64,000 bases of DNA from Dehalococcoidia bacterium (GTDB taxonomy: Bacteria; Chloroflexota; Dehalococcoidia; Plut-88900). Position numbers and translations under genes: made by a program. Of the stretch, positions 9,129 through 37,961 are shown in pieces (within the stretch, counting starts at the first letter, position 1; each line of letters opens with the position of its first letter). The notes under the pieces were generated by a model. It did no database searches. It was not told the DNA's origin and was given only the letters and a program-made list of their open reading frames with translations. The stretch spans positions 456,345 to 520,344 of the forward strand of contig OY764147.1 in the NCBI GenBank assembly GCA_963668115.1, given 5' to 3'.

Positions 9129-10298
9129 CTAGGAGATATTGTAGAGGCGGGCGCAGTTGTTCCAGAGGATTTCACGCTGGCTGGACTCGGGGACGCCTTC
9201 AAGGGAGAGGAAGGTCTCGATGGCGTGGGGGTAGGCGGAGTCGTTGTGGGGCCAGTCGGTGGAGATGACGAGGTTCTTGGAGCCGATGGCCTGGATGGTG
9301 TACTTGACGAGGGCCTCGTCGGGGTCTACTGAGACGAAACAGCGCTCCTGGAAATACTCGCTCGGGGGGCGGGTGAGGCCGAATCGCTCCTTGTCACCCA
9401 TCATCTCTTCGTGCTCGTCCAGGCAGTAGAGCCACCAGGGAACCCAGCTGCTGTGGCCTTCGAGGAAGGCGGCTTTGAGGGTCGGGGTCCTTTCGAGGAC
9501 GCCGCCAGCGAGCATGTTGCCGAGGGTGCACATGAGCTCTACGGGGTGGGCGACGGAGTGGCCGAGGGCGTGGTTGTCCATGTAGCGTCGGGCGAGGTGG
9601 TCCTGGTAGGCCATCTGGATTCCGTGGAAGGATACGGGAACGCCGAGGGACTGGGCGGCGTTCCAGAAGGGGTCATAGCAGGGGTCGTACCAGGGGCGTT
9701 GGCGGACAGGGTTGCTGGGGAGGACGAGGGTCACGGCGCCGAGGTTGTTGACGGCGAACTCGGCCTCCTGAATGGCGAGATTGACATCGTGCATGGGGAC
9801 TAGGGCGCCGAGCTTGAGGATGGTCGGGTCTGCGTCGCAGTAGTCACGGAGCCAGAGGTTGAAGGCACGGCAGATGGCGGCGGCGAGCTTGGGGTCCATG
9901 TCGTCGTAGCCGATGACGTGGGCGCCCATGGTGCGGAAGCAGATGGCGATGTCCAGGCCTTCCACCTTGACGGCTTCGAGCATGTGCTCGGGGCGGGAGC
10001 CTTCCTCCTCGCCAGGGCCGAGGCTGCCGGAGAGGTGCTTGTCGGGTTGATAGGTGCCTTCGGATTCCGCCTTTTGCCGGGCGATCTCGTTGCGGATATC
10101 GAGGCCGCGCTGGCGTTCGGGGAGGTCGATGAAGGCGGGGAGGGGTCTGCCGTTGCAGTGCCAGGTCTCGCCTCGGCCGTTCATGGATATCTTGCAGGGG
10201 GCGAGGTCTTTGAAGGCGGGCTCTATGTAGTCGAGCCACAGGTTGGGGGGTTCGGAGACGTGGATATCGCTGTCCATGACTTTGAAGCCGTTGTTCAT
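9129..10298 (-). CDS. Amidohydrolase-2 family metal-dependent hydrolase
   Basis: 389-aa ORF with N-terminal DSDIHVSEP metal-ligand pattern and overall amidohydrolase_2 (ACMSD-like) layout. Confidence 0.7.
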   Translation of the reverse strand: MNNGFKVMDSDIHVSEPPNLWLDYIEPAFKDLAPCKISMNGRGETWHCNGRPLPAFIDLPERQRGLDIRNEIARQKAESEGTYQPDKHLSGSLGPGEEEGSRPEHMLEAVKVEGLDIAICFRTMGAHVIGYDDMDPKLAAAICRAFNLWLRDYCDADPTILKLGALVPMHDVNLAIQEAEFAVNNLGAVTLVLPSNPVRQRPWYDPCYDPFWNAAQSLGVPVSFHGIQMAYQDHLARRYMDNHALGHSVAHPVELMCTLGNMLAGGVLERTPTLKAAFLEGHSSWVPWWLYCLDEHEEMMGDKERFGLTRPPSEYFQERCFVSVDPDEALVKYTIQAIGSKNLVISTDWPHNDSAYPHAIETFLSLEGVPESSQREILWNNCARLYNIS

Positions 10299-10331
10299 GC
10301 TTATGCTCCCGAGAATGAGAAACGGATGGCT

Positions 10332-11429
10332 CTACAGATTGTGAATCCTGGCGACGGTTGCGCCGAGGATGTTAGAGCGGGCTTCCTCGGAGAGGAAGGG
10401 GCAGTGGGCGCGGTACTGGTCGAAGCACTGGCGGTAGTTCCAGAACCGGAGGACCATGGGTATATCGGTGCCGACTATGACATGGTCGGAGCCGATGCGG
10501 TTGACGATTTCTTCGACGGTAGGCTCGACGTTTTTGAATGGGTATTGCCAGATGCCGCCGAGCTGGATGGGAAAGAGAAGCTGGAGATTGCACTTGTCGG
10601 ACTCGAAGACACGCCAGATTTCTTCGGGGAGCATGATGCGGTCGTCCTGGCGGAAGTTTCCCCAAGAGAGACCGTGGGTTAGGACAACGGGGGTGTCGGG
10701 GTGGTCCTGCATCCAGCTGTAGACGGTGTCGAGCTCCTGGAGGTAGCTGGCCGTGCCCGACTTTGCGAAGGCCTGACCCGCCCTGGGTTGAACGGTGAAG
10801 TAGACGGGGAGACCGAGGGTCGAAATGCCATGCCAGAATTCGCGCATGGGGCCGGCATTCCAGCTTTCTGCAAAGCCGCCAGTCGAGTAGGGGCGGGTGA
10901 AGAACTGGTAGCCGCACACGCCCCCGGCGTTCATCCAATGCTCGACTTCCCGGAGGGCGGCGGCGGGGTCTGAGGGGATGTCGGTTTCGGGTATGTGTAC
11001 GAGGCTCTTGATGCGGTCGGGGTGACGGGCGGCGGCCTCGGAATGGAACTTGTTGTTGCGGCCGAGGTGGGAGGCGTTGTGGAGGATGGCGATATCGACC
11101 CGGGCGTAGTCCATTTCGGCGATGAGGCGGTCGGCGGGCATTTCAAGGTTGTGGAGCAGGGGCGGGAGGTACTGCTTGGTGTAGGTCTCGCCCTGGTAAG
11201 TCCAGGTTAGCCGGTCCTTGTCCCGTCCCCAGGTGACGTCGTGGAGGGCGCCGGTTTCGGGGTCGGCGAGGACGGAGTTGTCGGCGAAGGCGCGGTCGCG
11301 GACTCGCCAGACGGGTTGGTGGTGGATGGACAGCTCCGTTTGGACAGCCCGCATTTTCTGCTCGAGTGTCGGGTACCCGGCGGGGGAGTCCATGGGCTCG
11401 AAGATGTAGGCGTGGCCGTCAATAAGCAT
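10332..11429 (-). CDS. Amidohydrolase-2 family protein (paralog)
   Basis: 365-aa ORF starting MLIDGHAYIF. Tandem with the previous amidohydrolase. Confidence 0.65.
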   Translation of the reverse strand: MLIDGHAYIFEPMDSPAGYPTLEQKMRAVQTELSIHHQPVWRVRDRAFADNSVLADPETGALHDVTWGRDKDRLTWTYQGETYTKQYLPPLLHNLEMPADRLIAEMDYARVDIAILHNASHLGRNNKFHSEAAARHPDRIKSLVHIPETDIPSDPAAALREVEHWMNAGGVCGYQFFTRPYSTGGFAESWNAGPMREFWHGISTLGLPVYFTVQPRAGQAFAKSGTASYLQELDTVYSWMQDHPDTPVVLTHGLSWGNFRQDDRIMLPEEIWRVFESDKCNLQLLFPIQLGGIWQYPFKNVEPTVEEIVNRIGSDHVIVGTDIPMVLRFWNYRQCFDQYRAHCPFLSEEARSNILGATVARIHNL

Positions 11430-32237: not shown

Positions 32238-33008
32238 GGGGTGGACCTATATCCGAGTGCGACCCCTACCAGGCGATAGGGGTCACCGGTGGGGATGGTA
32301 GCACAGGGAGTGGGACAAGTCTACCAGGGGGGCCGGTTCGGGTGGGTCGGCGACCCGGCGGGTTATCCGGTCCTCCTGGGGGCGGCTATTCGGTTGTGGG
32401 GTTTCGTTTTCGGGTTTTCTGTTTTGGAGGGGTCGGCGATGGGAGACGCCCAGTGGGACAAGGCCCCTGTTCCTGTCGGAGCAGTTTTTCGGGCGCCCAG
32501 GGTCGGGCGCAGGTTCAAGCGCCTGCCACGGGGCCCGGAGTGTCAATGGCTATGACAGCCAAGGCGCTCCCAGGGTGAGGGGAAAAGGGACAAAACGTGA
32601 TGTTATGGAACAGGACGGGACAAAGATGGGATCCAGGGCGTCTATCCATCGCCTAGATGGTCAGGGAAGGGCCACGGGCGCCCCGATGGTGAGGGGACAA
32701 CGTCCCTGTCCGCCTGAGGCGGATGTACCAGCTTGTGCCTAGGGCCTGCGCGTGGGCCTTTGGGATGGGCTGGGGCGTTGAGTCCTCGGGGTCGGGTCTC
32801 GGGGACTTCCCTGGGTTTCTGGTTCCTCCTTGTGTTACTGAATTAGTGTTCGCGAACGCAGGGTATGATAACGCCTTTGCTCAGGTGTGTCAAGCAAATG
32901 TACGTGTATTGGGGGATACGCGAGGGGTTGGCCGGCGTGGGCCGCCCCCCGCCCCAGGGTACCCACGAGGGGCACCCCTACGGGGGAGGGGACACCCCAC
33001 CGCGCCCC

Positions 33009-33095
33009 GCGGGATGGATTTACGCCAATGGCGCATCTTCGACCCGATCGGGGCCGGAATGACGGCAAGGGATGGGTGGGGATGATGGGGGGGTG
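33009..33095. repeat. Intergenic repeat copy R3 (module A with internal palindromic insertion plus module B GGGGATGATGGGGGGG)
   Basis: GGGATGGATT…CGGGGCCGGAATGACGG…GGGGATGATGGGGGGG. Direct orientation relative to R4. Contains CGCCAATGGCG palindrome. Confidence 0.55.
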
Positions 33096-33236
33096 TCTGA
33101 ACTGTGATGCATGGGATTGAGGGATTGGTTTGATTTGTTGGGAGTGGTGGGGGTGGGTTGACGGTTAATCTAAACTTGGCGGTACGCCGGAGGTGCATCA
33201 AGGACATTTACGACCCTCCAAAGGCGGGTCTTTGAC

Positions 33237-34697
33237 ATGGCTGAAGCGAATTTTGTGGACAAGACGATCTGGACGGGGGACAACCTCGATATTTTGAGGG
33301 GGTTGAACTCCGATTGCGTGGACATGATATATCTCGATCCGCCGTTCAATTCCAACCGGAACTACGCTGCTCCGGTCGGGTCACGGGCGGCGGGGGCGGC
33401 GTTCAAGGATACGTGGACGCTGTCCGACCTGGACACGGCATGGATGGGGTTGATTGCGGACGAACAGCCGGCGATGTACAAGGTGATAGAGACGGCGGGG
33501 CTGACGCACGGAAAGGGGATGCAGTCTTACCTGTGCATGATGGCGGTGCGGCTGGTTGAGATGCGGCGGGTGCTGAGGGACACAGGGTCAATATATCTGC
33601 ACTGTGACCCGACGGCATCGCACTATCTGAAGATGCTGATGGACTCGATATTTGGAGCGGGACTATTCAAGGCAGAGATCAATTGGCAAAGGACATCCGC
33701 TCATAGTGACTCGCGCACCTTTGGTAATGTGAGTGACAAGCTTTTGTTTTACAGTGCGACCTCCATAAATGCAGATGCAATTCGTACTCCCTTAAATCCT
33801 GATTACGTAAAAAGTCACTACCGATATACCGATAAACGTGGGCGCTATCAAGACGATAATTTGACTGGCCCTAGCCACGGGTCTCCACCTGGCAGTCCTG
33901 GTACACAACCTTGGCGTGAGTACGATCCGACTTCTATCAACCGCATTTGGTCGGTTCCAAAAACAGGAAGATACGCCACCTGGATTGACCACAACATCAT
34001 TCCGGGATATCTGAAAATGGAGAGCATATTTGATCGCTTAGATGCTTTGGAGCAAGCCGACATGCTCATCCATACTGAAAGAGGTCTCGTACCACGACTT
34101 AAACGGTATTCGCAGGCTAGTCTTGGTCAAGTTCCTAGCAACAACTGGACTGACATTTCCCCAATCAACTCCCAAGCTAAAGAGCGCACAGGCTATCCCA
34201 CCCAAAAGCCCCTTGCCCTGTTAGAGCGGATTATCTCGGCGTCTTCCAATCCGAGCGATGTGGTGCTGGACCCGTTTTGCGGGTGCGCAACAGCCTGTGT
34301 GGCGGCGGAGAAACTGGGAAGGAAATGGGTGGGGATAGACATTTCGCCAAAGGCCGTCGAATTGGTGAATATGCGGTTGCGGAAGTTCATGGGGGACTTG
34401 TTCCACGAACGGTTGGTGACGGCCCGGACAGACATACCGCGTCGGACGGACATATTGGTCCCGATTCCGTATCGGAAGCAGAAGCACGTACTGTTTGGTC
34501 GGCAGGAGGGGAGGTGTGCGGGGTGCAAGTATGAGTTCCCGTTCAGGATTTTAGAGGTGGACCACGTGATACCGAGGAGTAGGGGAGGGTCGGACCACCT
34601 GGACAATTTGCAACTGCTGTGTCCTAACTGCAATCGGATCAAAGGTGATAGGGAGATGTCGTACCTGATGGCTCGGTTGAAGGAGAGGGTGGGGTAG
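33237..34697 (+). CDS. Beta-class N6-adenine/N4-cytosine DNA methyltransferase fused to a C-terminal HNH endonuclease domain
   Basis: Motif IV DPPF near the N-terminus, motif I (VLDPFCGCATACVAAEKLG) near residue 370, then CxxC…HVIPRSRGGSDHLDNLQLLCPNCN HNH. The central part (~33650-34200) is markedly AT-richer. Confidence 0.85.
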   Translation: MAEANFVDKTIWTGDNLDILRGLNSDCVDMIYLDPPFNSNRNYAAPVGSRAAGAAFKDTWTLSDLDTAWMGLIADEQPAMYKVIETAGLTHGKGMQSYLCMMAVRLVEMRRVLRDTGSIYLHCDPTASHYLKMLMDSIFGAGLFKAEINWQRTSAHSDSRTFGNVSDKLLFYSATSINADAIRTPLNPDYVKSHYRYTDKRGRYQDDNLTGPSHGSPPGSPGTQPWREYDPTSINRIWSVPKTGRYATWIDHNIIPGYLKMESIFDRLDALEQADMLIHTERGLVPRLKRYSQASLGQVPSNNWTDISPINSQAKERTGYPTQKPLALLERIISASSNPSDVVLDPFCGCATACVAAEKLGRKWVGIDISPKAVELVNMRLRKFMGDLFHERLVTARTDIPRRTDILVPIPYRKQKHVLFGRQEGRCAGCKYEFPFRILEVDHVIPRSRGGSDHLDNLQLLCPNCNRIKGDREMSYLMARLKERVG

Positions 34698-34707
34698 GGG
34701 GAGGAGG

Positions 34708-35715
34708 TTACGAGCCTGGACCTTCACCTATACGGGCGATAATCCTGTTCTTCAATTCACTACGCAGGTCCTCTGGGGTATCCCAAACGATGTGTGCATA
34801 TTGGCGTGTGTCAAAGTGTAGCTTGTCTATCATGTCATTGCGGCAAGTGTATATGACTGGAATGCCTAGACCATGAGCAAAACCCGCCTCAAAATAAACT
34901 CCACCTCTAGCACCGCCTTCCCCGTGGGTAAAGTCAGCAACCAAAAATCGGGAGCGTCGAATTTCAGCAATTATTTCATCATCAATCTTGTCTATGTCCG
35001 GCTTCTGGTCAATTCTAAGTGGATTATATCCTGCGTCCTTAATGGCTAGTCTGACACCATTGTCAAATGCCTCGTCCATACTGTCATCAAGCCACATGGC
35101 AACAAAGGCTTGAGCAGAATCCAGATTTATCTTTTGCTCTGCAATGCGGCGGTACCCGGATACCGTGAGCCCGCCATGGAACAACCCATTCACAAGCCTC
35201 TGTCCCCGTATCCATCTCATCTCCTCCAAATAGTCGAGCAAATATACGACCTCACCCCATTCAACCGATTCTGACCACGCAAACGCTCCATAGGATTCCT
35301 GCTGAATCTCTACAACAGTTGCTATTGTTGTTGCGTGTCTTTCGATGAATCGAAGGAGTCTATCGGCACGTTGCTCAACTGGTATGGGAGGCTCCTTTCT
35401 AGCTTGTTCTACGAGCTGCGTATCGACAAGTGGCCATCTTACTCCTTGTTCTAGTTGATCAAGAATGATAGTAGTTATCTTCGCTCTTAGTTTCCCGTTA
35501 ACGGTACTGCCTTTGAGATCAAATTCTGCCCCAACAGCAACTGCGTAAGGCCCTCCAACGCGAGGGGAGTCCTCGATAAGTGTCCGACGTCTCCGGAAGT
35601 CGTATGAAACTGTGGCTTGAAAGTCTGGCCATATCTGACATTGGTCTTGCGGCACTTTAAACCTCGTTATTGCTTCTCTCAGAAATCTTGAGCTATCTGC
35701 AGCTTGACCTTTCAA
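34708..35715 (-). CDS. Two-domain protein: unknown N-terminal domain plus C-terminal nucleoside 2-deoxyribosyltransferase/TIR-like (flavodoxin-fold) domain; candidate defence effector
   Basis: The C-terminal ~130 aa (AFVAMWLDD…FLVADFT…GVYFEAGFAHGLGIPVIY) resembles the NDT/TIR-like catalytic-Glu motif. Low GC. Convergent with the MTase-HNH gene. TTG start. Confidence 0.45.
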   Translation of the reverse strand: MKGQAADSSRFLREAITRFKVPQDQCQIWPDFQATVSYDFRRRRTLIEDSPRVGGPYAVAVGAEFDLKGSTVNGKLRAKITTIILDQLEQGVRWPLVDTQLVEQARKEPPIPVEQRADRLLRFIERHATTIATVVEIQQESYGAFAWSESVEWGEVVYLLDYLEEMRWIRGQRLVNGLFHGGLTVSGYRRIAEQKINLDSAQAFVAMWLDDSMDEAFDNGVRLAIKDAGYNPLRIDQKPDIDKIDDEIIAEIRRSRFLVADFTHGEGGARGGVYFEAGFAHGLGIPVIYTCRNDMIDKLHFDTRQYAHIVWDTPEDLRSELKNRIIARIGEGPGS

Positions 35716-35803
35716 ATGGTCACAACCTACATTAGTAAATTATATCCTCGAACTCTTGAGAACCTAAGCGTGGTTACATGTGGGCCAGCCCCGCCCCGTC
35801 ACC

Positions 35804-35880
35804 GGGGATGGATTCCCGACTACTCGGGAATGACGGAGTAACGGGAGTGGGGATGATGGGGGTGGGGGGTGGGGGGAGGT
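35804..35880. repeat. Intergenic repeat copy R4 (module A GGGGATGGATTCCCGACTACTCGGGAATGACGG plus module B GGGGATGATGGGGGTGG)
   Basis: Perfect stem ATTCCCGA/TCGGGAAT. Same orientation as R3, so together they bracket the low-GC cassette. Confidence 0.6.
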
Positions 35881-36039
35881 TGTTGGGGTAGGGGTGAGGG
35901 TTATTCTACGGTGTGTATGTTAGGATACGCGCAGGTTTGAGCCATAGCGGAGGCCAGAGATTACTACGACAACGCAGGCGGTGATTTCGGGGGAGGCGGG
36001 TGAGCCGACCCGGCGGGCTATCTGAAAACCCTCCAACAA

Positions 36040-36330
36040 GTGCACTCTCAGTTGGCCGAGGGTGAATTCGTCTTTTCTCGCCACGCCCTAATCCGAATGG
36101 CTGACAGGAACATTTCTGATCTGGAGATCAGGCAGGCCGGAAGACAGGCCACCGTTATAGAAGAGTATCCTGCCGACAAATACTCGCCAAGCTGTCTTCT
36201 CCTAGGGTTCACTGATGCCGGCAGACCGCTTCATATTCAAGTTTCTCTGGCCGATACAAAGAACGTGAGAATAGTTACACTCTATGAACCAAACCCCGAA
36301 GAATGGGTTGGGCTTTCCATGAGGAGGTAA
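36040..36330 (+). CDS. DUF4258-family putative toxin
   Basis: 96-aa ORF (…FSRHALIRMADRNIS…) of the DUF4258 type. Immediately followed by a zinc-ribbon antitoxin-like gene. Confidence 0.5.
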   Translation: MHSQLAEGEFVFSRHALIRMADRNISDLEIRQAGRQATVIEEYPADKYSPSCLLLGFTDAGRPLHIQVSLADTKNVRIVTLYEPNPEEWVGLSMRR

Positions 36331-36332
36331 AG

Positions 36333-36575
36333 ATGTCCGAATGCTCTGTGTGCAACGCCCGGGAAATCCGCGAAGAGCCGGTTGATGAGGTGTTCCACGT
36401 CGATGGGCGGTGGGTGTTGGTCGGGGGGATTCCGGCTTTGGTGTGCGGCAGGTGTGGGGAACAGTCATTCAGCCGGGAGGCCGCGGAGAAAGTCCGGCTG
36501 ATGGTGCACGGGGAAGCCAAGGCGACAACATCGGTTTCGATGCAGGTGTACGATTTTGCATCATCAGCGTCGTGA
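36333..36575 (+). CDS. YgiT/MqsA-type zinc-ribbon protein (putative antitoxin)
   Basis: MSECSVCNAREIREE…LVCGRCGEQSFS has the CxxC…CxxC YgiT-type zinc finger. ATG 36333 after GAGGAGG. Overlaps the toxin stop. Confidence 0.55.
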   Translation: MSECSVCNAREIREEPVDEVFHVDGRWVLVGGIPALVCGRCGEQSFSREAAEKVRLMVHGEAKATTSVSMQVYDFASSAS

Positions 36576-36632
36576 CGCGTATGGCGCCGAATGGCACAAC
36601 AGCACACTTCGAGAATTGAGGGGAGTAGAAGT

Positions 36633-37961
36633 ATGTCGCAGTTGAGGGTTGTACATTACCTGAACCAGTTTTTTGCGGGGATCGGCGGGGAGGATAAGGC
36701 GGATACGGCCCCGGGGTCGGAGGGCCGACCGCTGGGGCCGGGGAATGCCCTTAATCAGGCGCTGACTTCTTCGGAGGAAGGGGAGGTGGTGGCGACGGTG
36801 TATTGCGGGGACACGTATTTCACCGAGAACCAGGAGGAAGCGCTGGGCCGGATCGTGGAGCTGGTGCGGGAGTCGGGGGCGGAGGTGCTGGTGGCGGGGC
36901 CGGCGTTTGGGTCGGGTCGGTACGGGCTGGCGTGCGCGCAGGTGTGCCAGAGGGTCGGGTCTGCGCTGGGGATTCCGGTTGTTACGGGGATGCACCCTGC
37001 AAACCCGGGGGCGGAGCAGTACAGGGGACAGGTGTACATGGCTTCGACTTCGGATACGGCAGTGGGGATGGGGGCGGCGATCGAGGTGATGGCTAAGCTG
37101 GCAGTGAAGCTGGGTCGGGGGGAGGAGCTGGGGCCTGCGGACGAGGACGGGTATATTCCGACGGGTCGGGTGAAGACGCAGGTACACGAGAAGACGATGG
37201 CGCAGAGGCTTGTCGACATGGTGCTGAAGAAGGTGAACGGAGAGCCCTTCGAGACGGAATGGCCGCTGCCTTCGATGGAGAAGATAGAACCGGCACCGGC
37301 GATAGGGTCGGTGGCCGGGGCGAGGATAGCGCTGGTGACGGAGGGGGGAGTGGTGCCTCGGGGGAACCCGGACAAGATCCCGAGCGGTTGGGCGAAGCAC
37401 TGGGCGCGTTATGACATCGGCGAGGTGTCGGACTTCACCCCCGATAAGTGGCAATCCGTACACGGCGGCTTCGACACCACCAAGCTGAATGAAGATCCCG
37501 ACAGGGTCCTTCCCCTCGATGTGATGCGGGAACTGGAGGAGGAGAAGGCCATAGGCAAGATCCACGAGTACATGTATTCCACCGTAGGGAATATTGGCTA
37601 CGTGGCGGACATGAAGCGGTTCGGAGAGGACATAGCGGCGGAACTGCAGGCGGCGGGGGTGCAGGGGGTGATCCTGACGGGGACCTGAGGCACGGGCACG
37701 CGTAGCGGGGCTACGCTGGCGAAGGAGCTGGAGAGGGCAGGGCTGCCGACGGCATTTATCACGGCGATGGTGCCACTGGCGCAGAGCATCGGGGCGAACC
37801 GGATTGTGCAGGGGAAAGCGGTGACGACGACGACGGGTGATCCTGCGCTGCCGCCGGATGAGGAGAAGGCCTTCAGGCGTCGGCTGGTGGAACGGGCGCT
37901 AAAGTCGCTGGAGTCGACACCCGAGGGGCAGGAGGTGGTGTGGGGGGAGGACCGGGGCTAG
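36633..37961 (+). CDS. GrdB-family (glycine/sarcosine/betaine reductase protein B-like) selenoprotein with in-frame UGA (Sec) at 37686-37688
   Basis: N-terminus MSQLRVVHYLNQFFAGIGGEDKAD. The ORF track splits it at TGA (..VILTGT*GTGTRSGATLAKELE..). The downstream frame continues with GLPTAFITAMVPLAQSIGANRIV…GDPALPPDEEKAFRRRLVERAL, typical of the GrdB C-terminus. A hairpin GCGTAGC-ggg-GCTACGC lies 11 nt after the UGA. Confidence 0.6.

Follow-up and report, generated by a model that had tools for sequence, protein, structure and literature searches.

A candidate single-chain defence protein of Dehalococcoidia that couples an apparently undescribed N-terminal module to an exchangeable N-glycosidase-type effector domain

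We analysed a gene on the reverse strand of a 64,000-nucleotide stretch of DNA, hereafter the window, from a Dehalococcoidia bacterium (assembly GCA_963668115.1, contig OY764147.1, positions 456,345 to 520,344). On balance, our results favour the view that this gene encodes a stand-alone, single-chain defence protein of the abortive-infection (Abi) type, which would combine an N-terminal sensor module with a C-terminal N-glycosidase effector, the likely substrate being the nicotinamide dinucleotides NAD(P)+. An earlier reading of the sequence alone had described an uncharacterised two-domain protein with a C-terminus like those of nucleoside 2-deoxyribosyltransferases (NDTs) and TIR domains. 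The effector domain stood up to analysis. The N-terminal half had been simplified, since it has three sub-parts: a hairpin region, a helical segment and a winged helix.

The domain design is best seen from the proteins that share the N-terminal ~180 residues (the N-module). A search with an N-module profile against 1.84 billion representatives (E ≤ 1e-3; representatives at 50% identity) found 1,255 representative proteins, and we assigned effector types for the top 150. The N-module is followed by an NDT-like domain in 84 of these, by TIR_2 in eight, by Abi_C in one and by a CAP12/Pycsar TIR domain in one; one is unclassified and 55 are fragments. The TIR_2 fusions match Pfam at E 4.4e-19 to 4.8e-21, and the W-x-x-x-E glutamate is visible in TIR variants P0126 and P0134. 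The HEPN-type Abi_C ("abortive infection C-terminus") fusion matches at E 8.4e-22, and the CAP12/Pycsar TIR (PF10137) fusion at E 3.1e-39. Since one N-module is fused to NDT-like, TIR, CAP12-type TIR and HEPN domains, we conclude from the sequences that it is a sensor or regulatory module, and that the NDT-like domain is an interchangeable toxic effector. The earlier idea of a possible sensor in the N-terminal half thus gains strong indirect support from its fusion to four types of effector domain. Recombination of one N-terminal module with unrelated toxic effectors is, moreover, a feature of Abi-type proteins.

Two pairs of proteins capture the exchange of effectors, and both swaps appear from the sequence comparisons to be recent. 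The N-modules of P0015 (NDT-like, locus L003) and P0126 (TIR) are 75% identical overall; between VKARLTT and the DSSQA junction, at which homology ends, identity judged by eye rises to ~94%. In the second pair, L094 (P0130, NDT-like) and L092 (P0132, Abi_C) are one syntenic locus whose flanks are 83–87% identical. These proteins match at residues 1–193 and over the last ~35 residues, and the central effector alone has been exchanged. A PIN-domain gene (8134–8550 of L092) overlaps the 3ʹ end of the Abi_C variant by 4 bp and is absent from the syntenic NDT-like locus. Homology between NDT-like and TIR or Abi_C variants ends at the D-S-S-Q-A junction, which closes a linker helix (residues 187–200, 35116..35157 on the minus strand; helix 185–199 in the structure model). 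Residue numbers throughout are those of the 335-aa open reading frame (ORF).

The effector domain (residues 201–330, 34726..35115, minus strand) is predicted to be five-stranded, Rossmann-like and of the NDT/DrHyd-TIR class. The sole Pfam match of the protein is to Nuc_deoxyrib_tr (PF05014) at residues 239–292, and lies below the gathering threshold (20.8 bits against a 28.8-bit cut-off; E 4.5e-4); only 5 of 120 listed homologs have a precomputed PF05014 match. The PADLOC "Effector TIR" model PDLC00733 matches at E 1.5e-9. In the Pfam scan, the protein had no match at E ≤ 1 to TIR (PF01582), TIR_2 (PF13676) or DUF4062, and none to PF10137; we place it outside DUF4062 and, probably, outside the other three families. 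No NCBIfam model matched either. A sequence search of the PDB with the single protein returned noise alone (E > 0.6), and the family profile found no solved structure by sequence. Hence, the relationships are remote.

Structure comparison is more informative. An AlphaFold2 model of the whole protein, built on 49 sequences, has a mean predicted local distance difference test (pLDDT) score of 86.7. With the last ~145 residues, Foldseek retrieved from the PDB the NDTs of Leishmania and Trypanosoma, DNPH1 and the CMP N-glycosidase BcmB, and also the TIR domains of SPARTA, SARM1 and AbTir, at E ~1e-3 to 1e-2 and probability 1.0. The highest target-normalised TM-scores, 0.64–0.69, belong to PDB matches that include DNPH1 and BcmB. 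In BFVD, a viral NDT ranks highest (7.5e-5), closely followed by a CMP/hydroxymethyl-CMP hydrolase (9.5e-5), and TIR proteins come only at ~0.05. The flavodoxin-like fold of NDTs is therefore represented among the matches (6qai, 2a0k, 9emx, 7o62 and viral NDTs). The structure prediction called for by the sequence-only reading accordingly returned no unrelated fold: prediction and Foldseek agree on the NDT/TIR class, alongside the PADLOC match and the sub-threshold Pfam match. Judged from the model, the C-terminal domain falls on the NDT/DrHyd side of the TIR-DrHyd-SLOG class as PMC9503650 understands that class.

The putative active site is strongly conserved. The catalytic-type motif at 34846..34947 on the minus strand translates to FLVADFTHGEGGARGGVYFEAGFAHGLGIPVIYT, as quoted in the sequence-only reading, and the codon of Glu276 occupies 34888–34890. 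The G-x-x-x-E-x-G-x-A context of the NDT nucleophile, after strand 4, is present as the conserved GGVYFEAGFA. An hhalign comparison aligned ARGGVYFEAGFA of our protein with ARQNVIFELGYF of the CAP12-type TIR protein P0207, with a score dominated by the shared N-module. Residues E276, D261, R270, D302 and H308 are invariant in the 49-sequence alignment. Loss of the glutamate from homologs would have told against the earlier proposal; it is kept in 75 of 76 genome-derived relatives, while D261, R270, D302, H308 and W208 are kept in all 76. E276 is also found in seven plasmid homologs, which together with the query span six phyla; in that alignment the invariant core is F-x-A (strand 1), A-D-x-T, V-Y-x-E-A-G-x-A-x-G and F-D. 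The effector domain has the lowest column entropy of the protein (1.03). The sole relative without the glutamate, L063 (match 10001–10870), is a shortened copy with Ala in its place, and may be inactivated.

The N-module has no match among Pfam, NCBIfam or PADLOC models, as the sequence-only reading had anticipated, and appears to be undescribed so far. Modelled alone, it reaches a pLDDT of 92 and a predicted TM-score (pTM) of 0.86. Three parts are distinguished in the structure models and Foldseek searches, all encoded on the minus strand. The first (residues 21–75, 35491..35655) is a three-stranded beta-hairpin region, covered by no PDB structural match from Foldseek. It is the most variable part of the protein (column entropy 2.68), which we count as sensor-like. 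Distant homologs from B. mycoides and Hydrogenimonas carry a CPxC...CxxCG zinc-ribbon signature at the aligned position, and the hairpin region may be a degenerate zinc ribbon. The second part (residues 76–130, 35326..35490) is a basic helical segment with a median isoelectric point (pI) of ~10, a net charge of +3 and the conserved motifs A-x-L-T-T, D-Q and R-A-x-R-L-L. The third (residues 131–186, 35158..35325) is a winged-helix subdomain with an A-W-S-E-S motif and weak Foldseek matches to MarR/HpaR, AspA, RosR and PadR (E ≥ 0.02, probability 0.99–1.0, ~85 residues). It is acidic (median pI 4.4, net charge −5), and DNA binding by this winged helix is therefore doubtful; we judge such a role unlikely.

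How might such a protein act? We propose that the enzyme would be inactive in the uninfected cell and that the N-module would recognise a phage-derived cue, more probably a protein than DNA because the winged helix is acidic. Upon recognition, the protein would oligomerise or change its conformation and thereby complete the active site. The effector, with E276 as its predicted catalytic glutamate, would then cleave the N-glycosidic bond of an essential nucleotide, and growth would halt before the phage cycle is completed. By analogy, NAD(P)+ is the most likely substrate. We favour it because the commonest alternative effectors on the N-module, TIR_2 and the CAP12/Pycsar TIR, are known NADases; because the NDT-like effector of Retron-Eco1 hydrolyses NAD(P)+ (PMC12673091); and because Swarozyc (DUF4062) pairs an NADase with an HTH/winged domain for binding the phage portal (bioRxiv 10.64898/2026.05.01.722283).

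The main rival keeps the architecture and the defence role and changes the chemistry. The effector would act on (deoxy)nucleotides, as an N-glycosidase like DNPH1, MilB or BcmB, and would destroy the pools of deoxynucleoside or nucleoside monophosphates (dNMP/NMP); in a variant of this idea, it destroys modified precursors specific to phages, such as 5-hydroxymethyl-dCMP or -dUMP, and could thereby re-expose hypermodified phage DNA to restriction. The only Pfam match, the best BFVD matches and the highest TM-scores all point this way, and a frequent placement in or beside restriction-modification (R-M) systems, described below, would make sense. Nonetheless, we consider this chemistry rather unlikely. 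The sequence after strand 1 of the effector domain reads FVAMWLDDSMDE, in which a glycine-rich phosphate-binding loop of the kind that we take to be typical of DNPH1 is not evident. A constitutive hydrolase would need no sensor module, and the most frequent alternative effectors are the TIR-type NAD+ hydrolases named above.

Several observations weigh against our proposal of an NAD(P)+-cleaving defence protein. The best matches lie on the side of NDT and of dNMP and CMP hydrolases rather than canonical TIR, which makes nucleotide cleavage a serious alternative, and the fold matches are all weak (E 1e-5 to 1e-2). That a HEPN RNase can take its place shows the effector to be toxic and is silent on NAD+. 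No model in PADLOC 2.0 covers the protein as a whole, and no PHROG or phage record assigns it a function. Roughly half of the loci, with the closest relatives among them, offer nothing but housekeeping genes or unidentified neighbours. Finally, in the one syntenic comparison made, with locus L087, our gene has diverged about as fast as the housekeeping genes beside it (75% identity against 74–86%), and this shows no sign of the rapid turnover that is often seen for defence genes.

Could the protein act on DNA itself? As a type IV-like restriction factor, it would bind DNA through the N-module and excise (modified) bases with the NDT-like domain. NDT domains linked to Abi modules have been proposed to attack DNA bases (Anantharaman et al. 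2013, PMC3710099). In our protein, the winged helix is accompanied by the basic helical segment, and the gene is associated with methyltransferases. The strongly acidic winged helix (pI 4.4) argues against this, and interchange with TIR and HEPN domains fits a suicide effector better. Furthermore, we know of no NDT-fold enzyme that is a DNA glycosylase. Base excision is thus a far-fetched explanation of the family.

Less probable still is that the protein is an ordinary salvage NDT, or a non-catalytic regulator that senses nucleotides. NCBI's prokaryotic genome annotation pipeline (PGAP) labels several plasmid homologs, including those of Bacillus mycoides and Leptospira, "nucleoside 2-deoxyribosyltransferase", and proteins of the TIR-DrHyd-SLOG class can serve to sense ligands (PMC9503650). 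A purely sensing role is at odds with the invariance of the catalytic-type residues. Salvage is at odds with the score below the Pfam gathering threshold, with an additional 180-residue N-module that is common to TIR and HEPN toxins, with a patchy distribution and AT-richness relative to the host, and with defence-island and plasmid contexts. Salvage enzymes of this type are single-domain proteins of ~150–170 aa, whereas ours has 315 aa, 180 of them in the N-module. We therefore reject identification as a bona fide NDT on the Pfam score, the extra module and the defence and mobile context, and the PGAP name is probably misleading for these proteins.

Relatives are numerous. In a word-indexed search (E ≤ 1e-3), more than 6,468 clusters matched; the top ones have ~320 aa, match over their full length and are 45–78% identical. 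All of the best homologs are unnamed, and cluster look-ups for seven NCBI-held members gave no names. A genome scan, with one genome per species, yielded at least 451 loci, most of them in metagenome-assembled genomes of Dehalococcoidia or other Chloroflexota; further loci come from Opitutales, Spirochaetia, Latescibacterota, Rhodothermales and Alphaproteobacteria. Paralogs occur together on one contig (L054 and L056) and on one chromosome (L031 and L043). Plasmids of Bradyrhizobium, Bacillus mycoides, B. cereus, Leptospira, Hymenobacter, Hydrogenimonas and Aliarcobacter carry homologs with 30–43% identity. By tblastn, no counterpart was found in 50,697 phage records, although the protein does match PHROG 16139, whose function is unknown.

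The genomic setting is that of defence islands, R-M loci and mobile DNA, as seen in the genome loci, in the plasmids and in base composition: in 74 of 76 loci, the GC content of the gene is below that of its flanks (median −10 points). Neighbourhoods were compared for 75 genome loci (76 with the window) with a simple greedy ORF caller. Components of type I R-M or HEPN-MNT systems lie no more than four genes away in 23 of the 75 genomes. In 16 loci, an hsdS gene or hsdS fragment is immediately upstream on the same strand. The gap ranges from −4 to 41 bp for 13 of these; in five loci it is −4, the start of our gene overlapping the hsdS stop, which suggests translational coupling. In 11 of the 75, the gene is flanked on the same strand by hsdS or hsdM upstream and hsdR downstream. 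Other immediate neighbours include type IIG, ISP, Eco57I-like, SIR2, AriA, AAA_21, Mrr, and the PDC-S65 and HEC-01 candidate systems, and the plasmid homologs adjoin SEFIR, NACHT, TIR, TRAF-binding, Ser/Thr kinase and ATPase+HNH genes. There is no constant partner gene across the 75 loci, and we reject a conserved small partner or antitoxin gene, since none recurs.

The hsdS-hsdR slot itself has several features. The upstream hsdS is usually fused at its N-terminus to a Pol-beta-type nucleotidyltransferase, often preceded by a gene for a small HEPN-like "NTase substrate-binding" protein; Pol-beta-HsdS fusions lie upstream of the match (~10001) in L001, L011, L016, L019, L020, L022, L024, L041, L045 and L061. 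Such a fusion with its HEPN-like gene amounts to a HEPN-MNT toxin-antitoxin module within the R-M operon. In L014, L019, L022, L024, L044 and L061, the slot also holds other cargo beside our gene, including the 8xMP octameric membrane protein (PF24838), an unannotated protein of ~390 aa (c7) and the small pairs c41/c42, which suggests that the slot is a hotspot for defence cargo. One 424-aa gene call, P0166, joins an HsdS C-terminus to the N-module, and is probably a read-through or frameshift at the junction of the two genes.

This placement raises the possibility of a functional tie to R-M systems. In a broad form, the protein would be a second line of defence coupled to R-M, in which either the N-module detects phage anti-restriction factors or altered methylation once the R-M system encoded with it is disarmed, or the NDT-type domain hydrolyses modified nucleotide precursors specific to phages (5-hydroxymethyl-dCMP or -dUMP), so that hypermodifying phages would be forced into unmodified, restrictable DNA. 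We regard this as unlikely, though it would explain the frequent, apparently translationally coupled insertion between hsdS and hsdR, as well as methyltransferase-nuclease neighbours, including the one in the window.

A narrower form, a guard like PrrC that is latent while R-M is intact and is activated by a phage anti-restriction factor or by changed methylation, seems to us distinctly improbable. The slot in 11 of 75 loci and the five −4 overlaps with hsdS speak for it, as do further loci with type IIG, ISP or N6_N4 methyltransferase neighbours. There is also a precedent in phage Dcm methylation, which triggers the NDT-like effector of Retron-Eco1 (PMC12673091), and the acidic winged helix could conceivably mimic or compete with DNA-mimic anti-restriction proteins. 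However, R-M genes are missing from the vicinity of most loci, the closest relatives included, and the protein must be able to work alone. Unrelated cargo (8xMP, c7, AAA_21) fills the same slot, which suggests a simple hotspot.

In the window, the neighbouring gene at 33237..34697 (plus strand) encodes a 486-aa fusion of a beta-class N6/N4 DNA methyltransferase and a C-terminal HNH nuclease (MTase-HNH; Pfam N6_N4_Mtase 5.5e-42, HNH 1.6e-15). The two genes are convergent, with 10 bp between their stop codons, and from this arrangement the sequence-only reading had drawn a functional link. Our comparisons do not bear this out. At locus L087, an ortholog 75% identical to our protein occupies the same position beside a RibF-TyrRS-aminotransferase-LigA block, which has 81% nucleotide identity to the window over 5.8 kb, and tblastn for MTase-HNH gives only noise at this locus. 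MTase-HNH is an insertion/deletion difference between the window and L087. True MTase-HNH fusions adjoin our gene in just 3 of the 76 loci for which an ORF of our gene was called, in three arrangements: convergent in the window, upstream on the same strand in L003 (73% identical to that of the window) and downstream on the same strand in L062 (42%). On the L087 synteny and the adjacency in 3 of 76 loci, we reject a conserved two-gene system with MTase-HNH; there is a looser recurrent association with R-M genes generally, and with type I operons above all.

Functional coupling to MTase-HNH, for instance as a toxic effector that is restrained by, or acts with, the methyltransferase-nuclease, is therefore very improbable. 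It would fit the convergent 3ʹ ends 10 bp apart, a low-GC stretch shared by the two genes in the window, and the two further adjacent fusions, more than chance would give for a rare gene. On the other hand, L087 retains our gene without a trace of MTase-HNH, an adjacent fusion is lacking in 73 of 76 loci, the three cases differ in orientation and order and form no conserved operon, and other close relatives (76–78% identical) sit among housekeeping genes. As far as the sequences tell, the pairing exceeds chance yet is facultative, and resembles the lodging of the family beside R-M genes; an obligate partnership is largely refuted.

The ORF list of the window does include the 335-aa frame with a TTG start (34708..35715, minus strand). 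The true coding sequence is probably shorter, with 315 aa from a GTG start at 35655 (34708..35655, minus strand). We prefer this start because homologs begin ~6 residues before a conserved C-x-I-W, and because a GAGG-type ribosome-binding site, ACGAGG, lies 7 nt upstream of the GTG; translation from here reads VPQDQCQIW (i.e. M-PQDQCQIW). The 20 upstream codons (35656..35715, minus strand) are probably a 5ʹ leader rather than coding: residues 1–20 are gapped in 81% of relatives, include no conserved residue and have an AlphaFold pLDDT of ~50. An exact TATAAT hexamer at 35739..35744 (minus strand), ~85 nt upstream of the GTG, is a possible −10 element by its match to the consensus; the promoter scan left it unreported, as it is without a good −35 hexamer. 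Promoter and terminator scans around the locus gave background levels, an Rfam scan of 31.5–37.5 kb found no RNA, and hence no retron-type RNA, and a tRNA scan around the locus found none, and hence no tRNA integration site.

The gene lies within a low-GC stretch of the window (0.46–0.49, against ~0.61). Inside the same stretch, and divergent from our gene, are two overlapping plus-strand genes that probably form a toxin-antitoxin pair (36040..36575): one for a 96-aa DUF4258 protein (36040–36330; Pfam 1.2e-20) and one for a 90-aa MqsA/YgiT zinc-finger protein (36303–36575; NCBIfam YgiT_finger 3e-8). Plus-strand GC skew is positive and unusually strong throughout the window whatever the gene orientation (0.06–0.29 per 2 kb, mostly >0.15), and is lost solely in the stretch of 33.5–35.8 kb, which includes our gene. 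Short imperfect direct repeats link two non-coding stretches that bracket MTase-HNH and our gene, one of ~1 kb between ribF and MTase-HNH (32350–33160) and one upstream of our gene (35790–36022). Exact copies of the 16-mer GTGGGGATGATGGGGG occur at 33076 and 35847; at ≤2 mismatches, the window has four matches, where 0.3 are expected. The repeats may be insertion remnants or a dispersed repeat. Further along (36591–37961), an ORF for GRDB (glycine/sarcosine/betaine reductase B) ends at 37688 and is followed by a short same-strand ORF from 37767. GrdB proteins are selenoproteins, and in-frame read-through of a UGA after the GRDB ORF is possible.

What would follow if our reading as a defence protein is correct? 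The proteins would make up a large family of single-gene immune proteins, with more than 6,400 sequence clusters and 1,255 N-module representatives at 50% identity. Its members come mainly from Chloroflexota (Dehalococcoidia) and further phyla that have received little study, for which, to our knowledge, almost nothing is known experimentally about phage defence. The N-module would be a new sensor, absent from Pfam, NCBIfam and PADLOC. Its natural series of swaps (NDT-like, TIR, CAP12-type TIR and HEPN on one sensor) would lend itself to telling the recognition of the trigger apart from the chemistry of killing, and the NDT-like members would be a further case for asking whether immune NDT-type domains are NADases or nucleotide glycosidases.

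Literature searches on NDT-like defence proteins led only to retron effectors, DUF4062/Swarozyc and the domain surveys of the Aravind laboratory, and none of these describes the present family. The type II retron effectors (Retron-Eco1/Ec86 and Sen2 RcaT; PMC7736814, PMC12673091) resemble our protein in length (~310–320 aa) and in combining an NDT-like domain with a winged helix. PMC12673091, citing Carabias 2024, reports that the NDT-like effector of Retron-Eco1 hydrolyses NAD(P)+, and NDT-type domains are thus able to act as NADases in immunity. However, the retron effectors have the NDT domain at the N-terminus and the winged helix-turn-helix domain at the C-terminus, the opposite order to ours. 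No reverse transcriptase is found among the recurrent neighbour clusters or frequent neighbour Pfam families of the 75 loci, PADLOC retron-effector models do not match, and there is no sequence match to the solved Ec86 chains. Hence, we reject membership among type II retron effectors on the reversed domain order and the lack of a reverse transcriptase or non-coding RNA.

Swarozyc has a DUF4062 (NIR) TIR-like NADase and an HTH/winged auxiliary domain that binds the phage portal (bioRxiv 10.64898/2026.05.01.722283), and like our protein it is the product of a single gene with a TIR/NDT-class N-glycosidase, a conserved glutamate and an HTH/winged domain. The auxiliary domain of Swarozyc recognises a phage protein directly and has flexible hairpin recognition elements; ours has hairpins and a winged helix, for which we propose a phage-derived cue. 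The effector is N-terminal in Swarozyc and C-terminal in our protein, which has no Pfam match to DUF4062.

Like PrrC and RloC, members of the present family can be embedded in type I R-M operons: in 11 of 75 genomes, the gene stands between hsdS and hsdR and shares their strand, often with overlaps or very short gaps. PrrC and RloC are anticodon nucleases, unrelated in fold and chemistry to an N-glycosidase, and most members of our family lie outside type I operons; the neighbours in the window are MTase-HNH and the toxin-antitoxin pair.

Single-chain TIR proteins like SpbK (PMC12847820), which sense structural proteins of phages, and the CAP12/Pycsar TIR proteins hydrolyse NAD+ and, as we propose for our protein, place a C-terminal effector under an N-terminal recognition part. 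Our effector passes none of the TIR, TIR_2 and PF10137 models and is closer to NDT, and the cyclic-nucleotide synthase that partners CAP12/Pycsar is not present. The AbiJ-NTD class also offers a parallel: Abi-type N-terminal domains fused to NDT have been predicted to be toxins, and one N-terminal module is recombined with HEPN, TIR and NDT domains in R-M and defence contexts, with a predicted role in abortive infection (Anantharaman et al. 2013, PMC3710099), all as we find or propose for the present family. AbiJ-NTD1 has ~140 aa and is mostly helical, whereas our N-module has ~180 aa and no Pfam match to AbiJ_NTD. By analogy with these systems, the protein of the window, whose effector belongs to an unstudied subfamily, would function in the manner of established single-chain sensor-effector Abi proteins.

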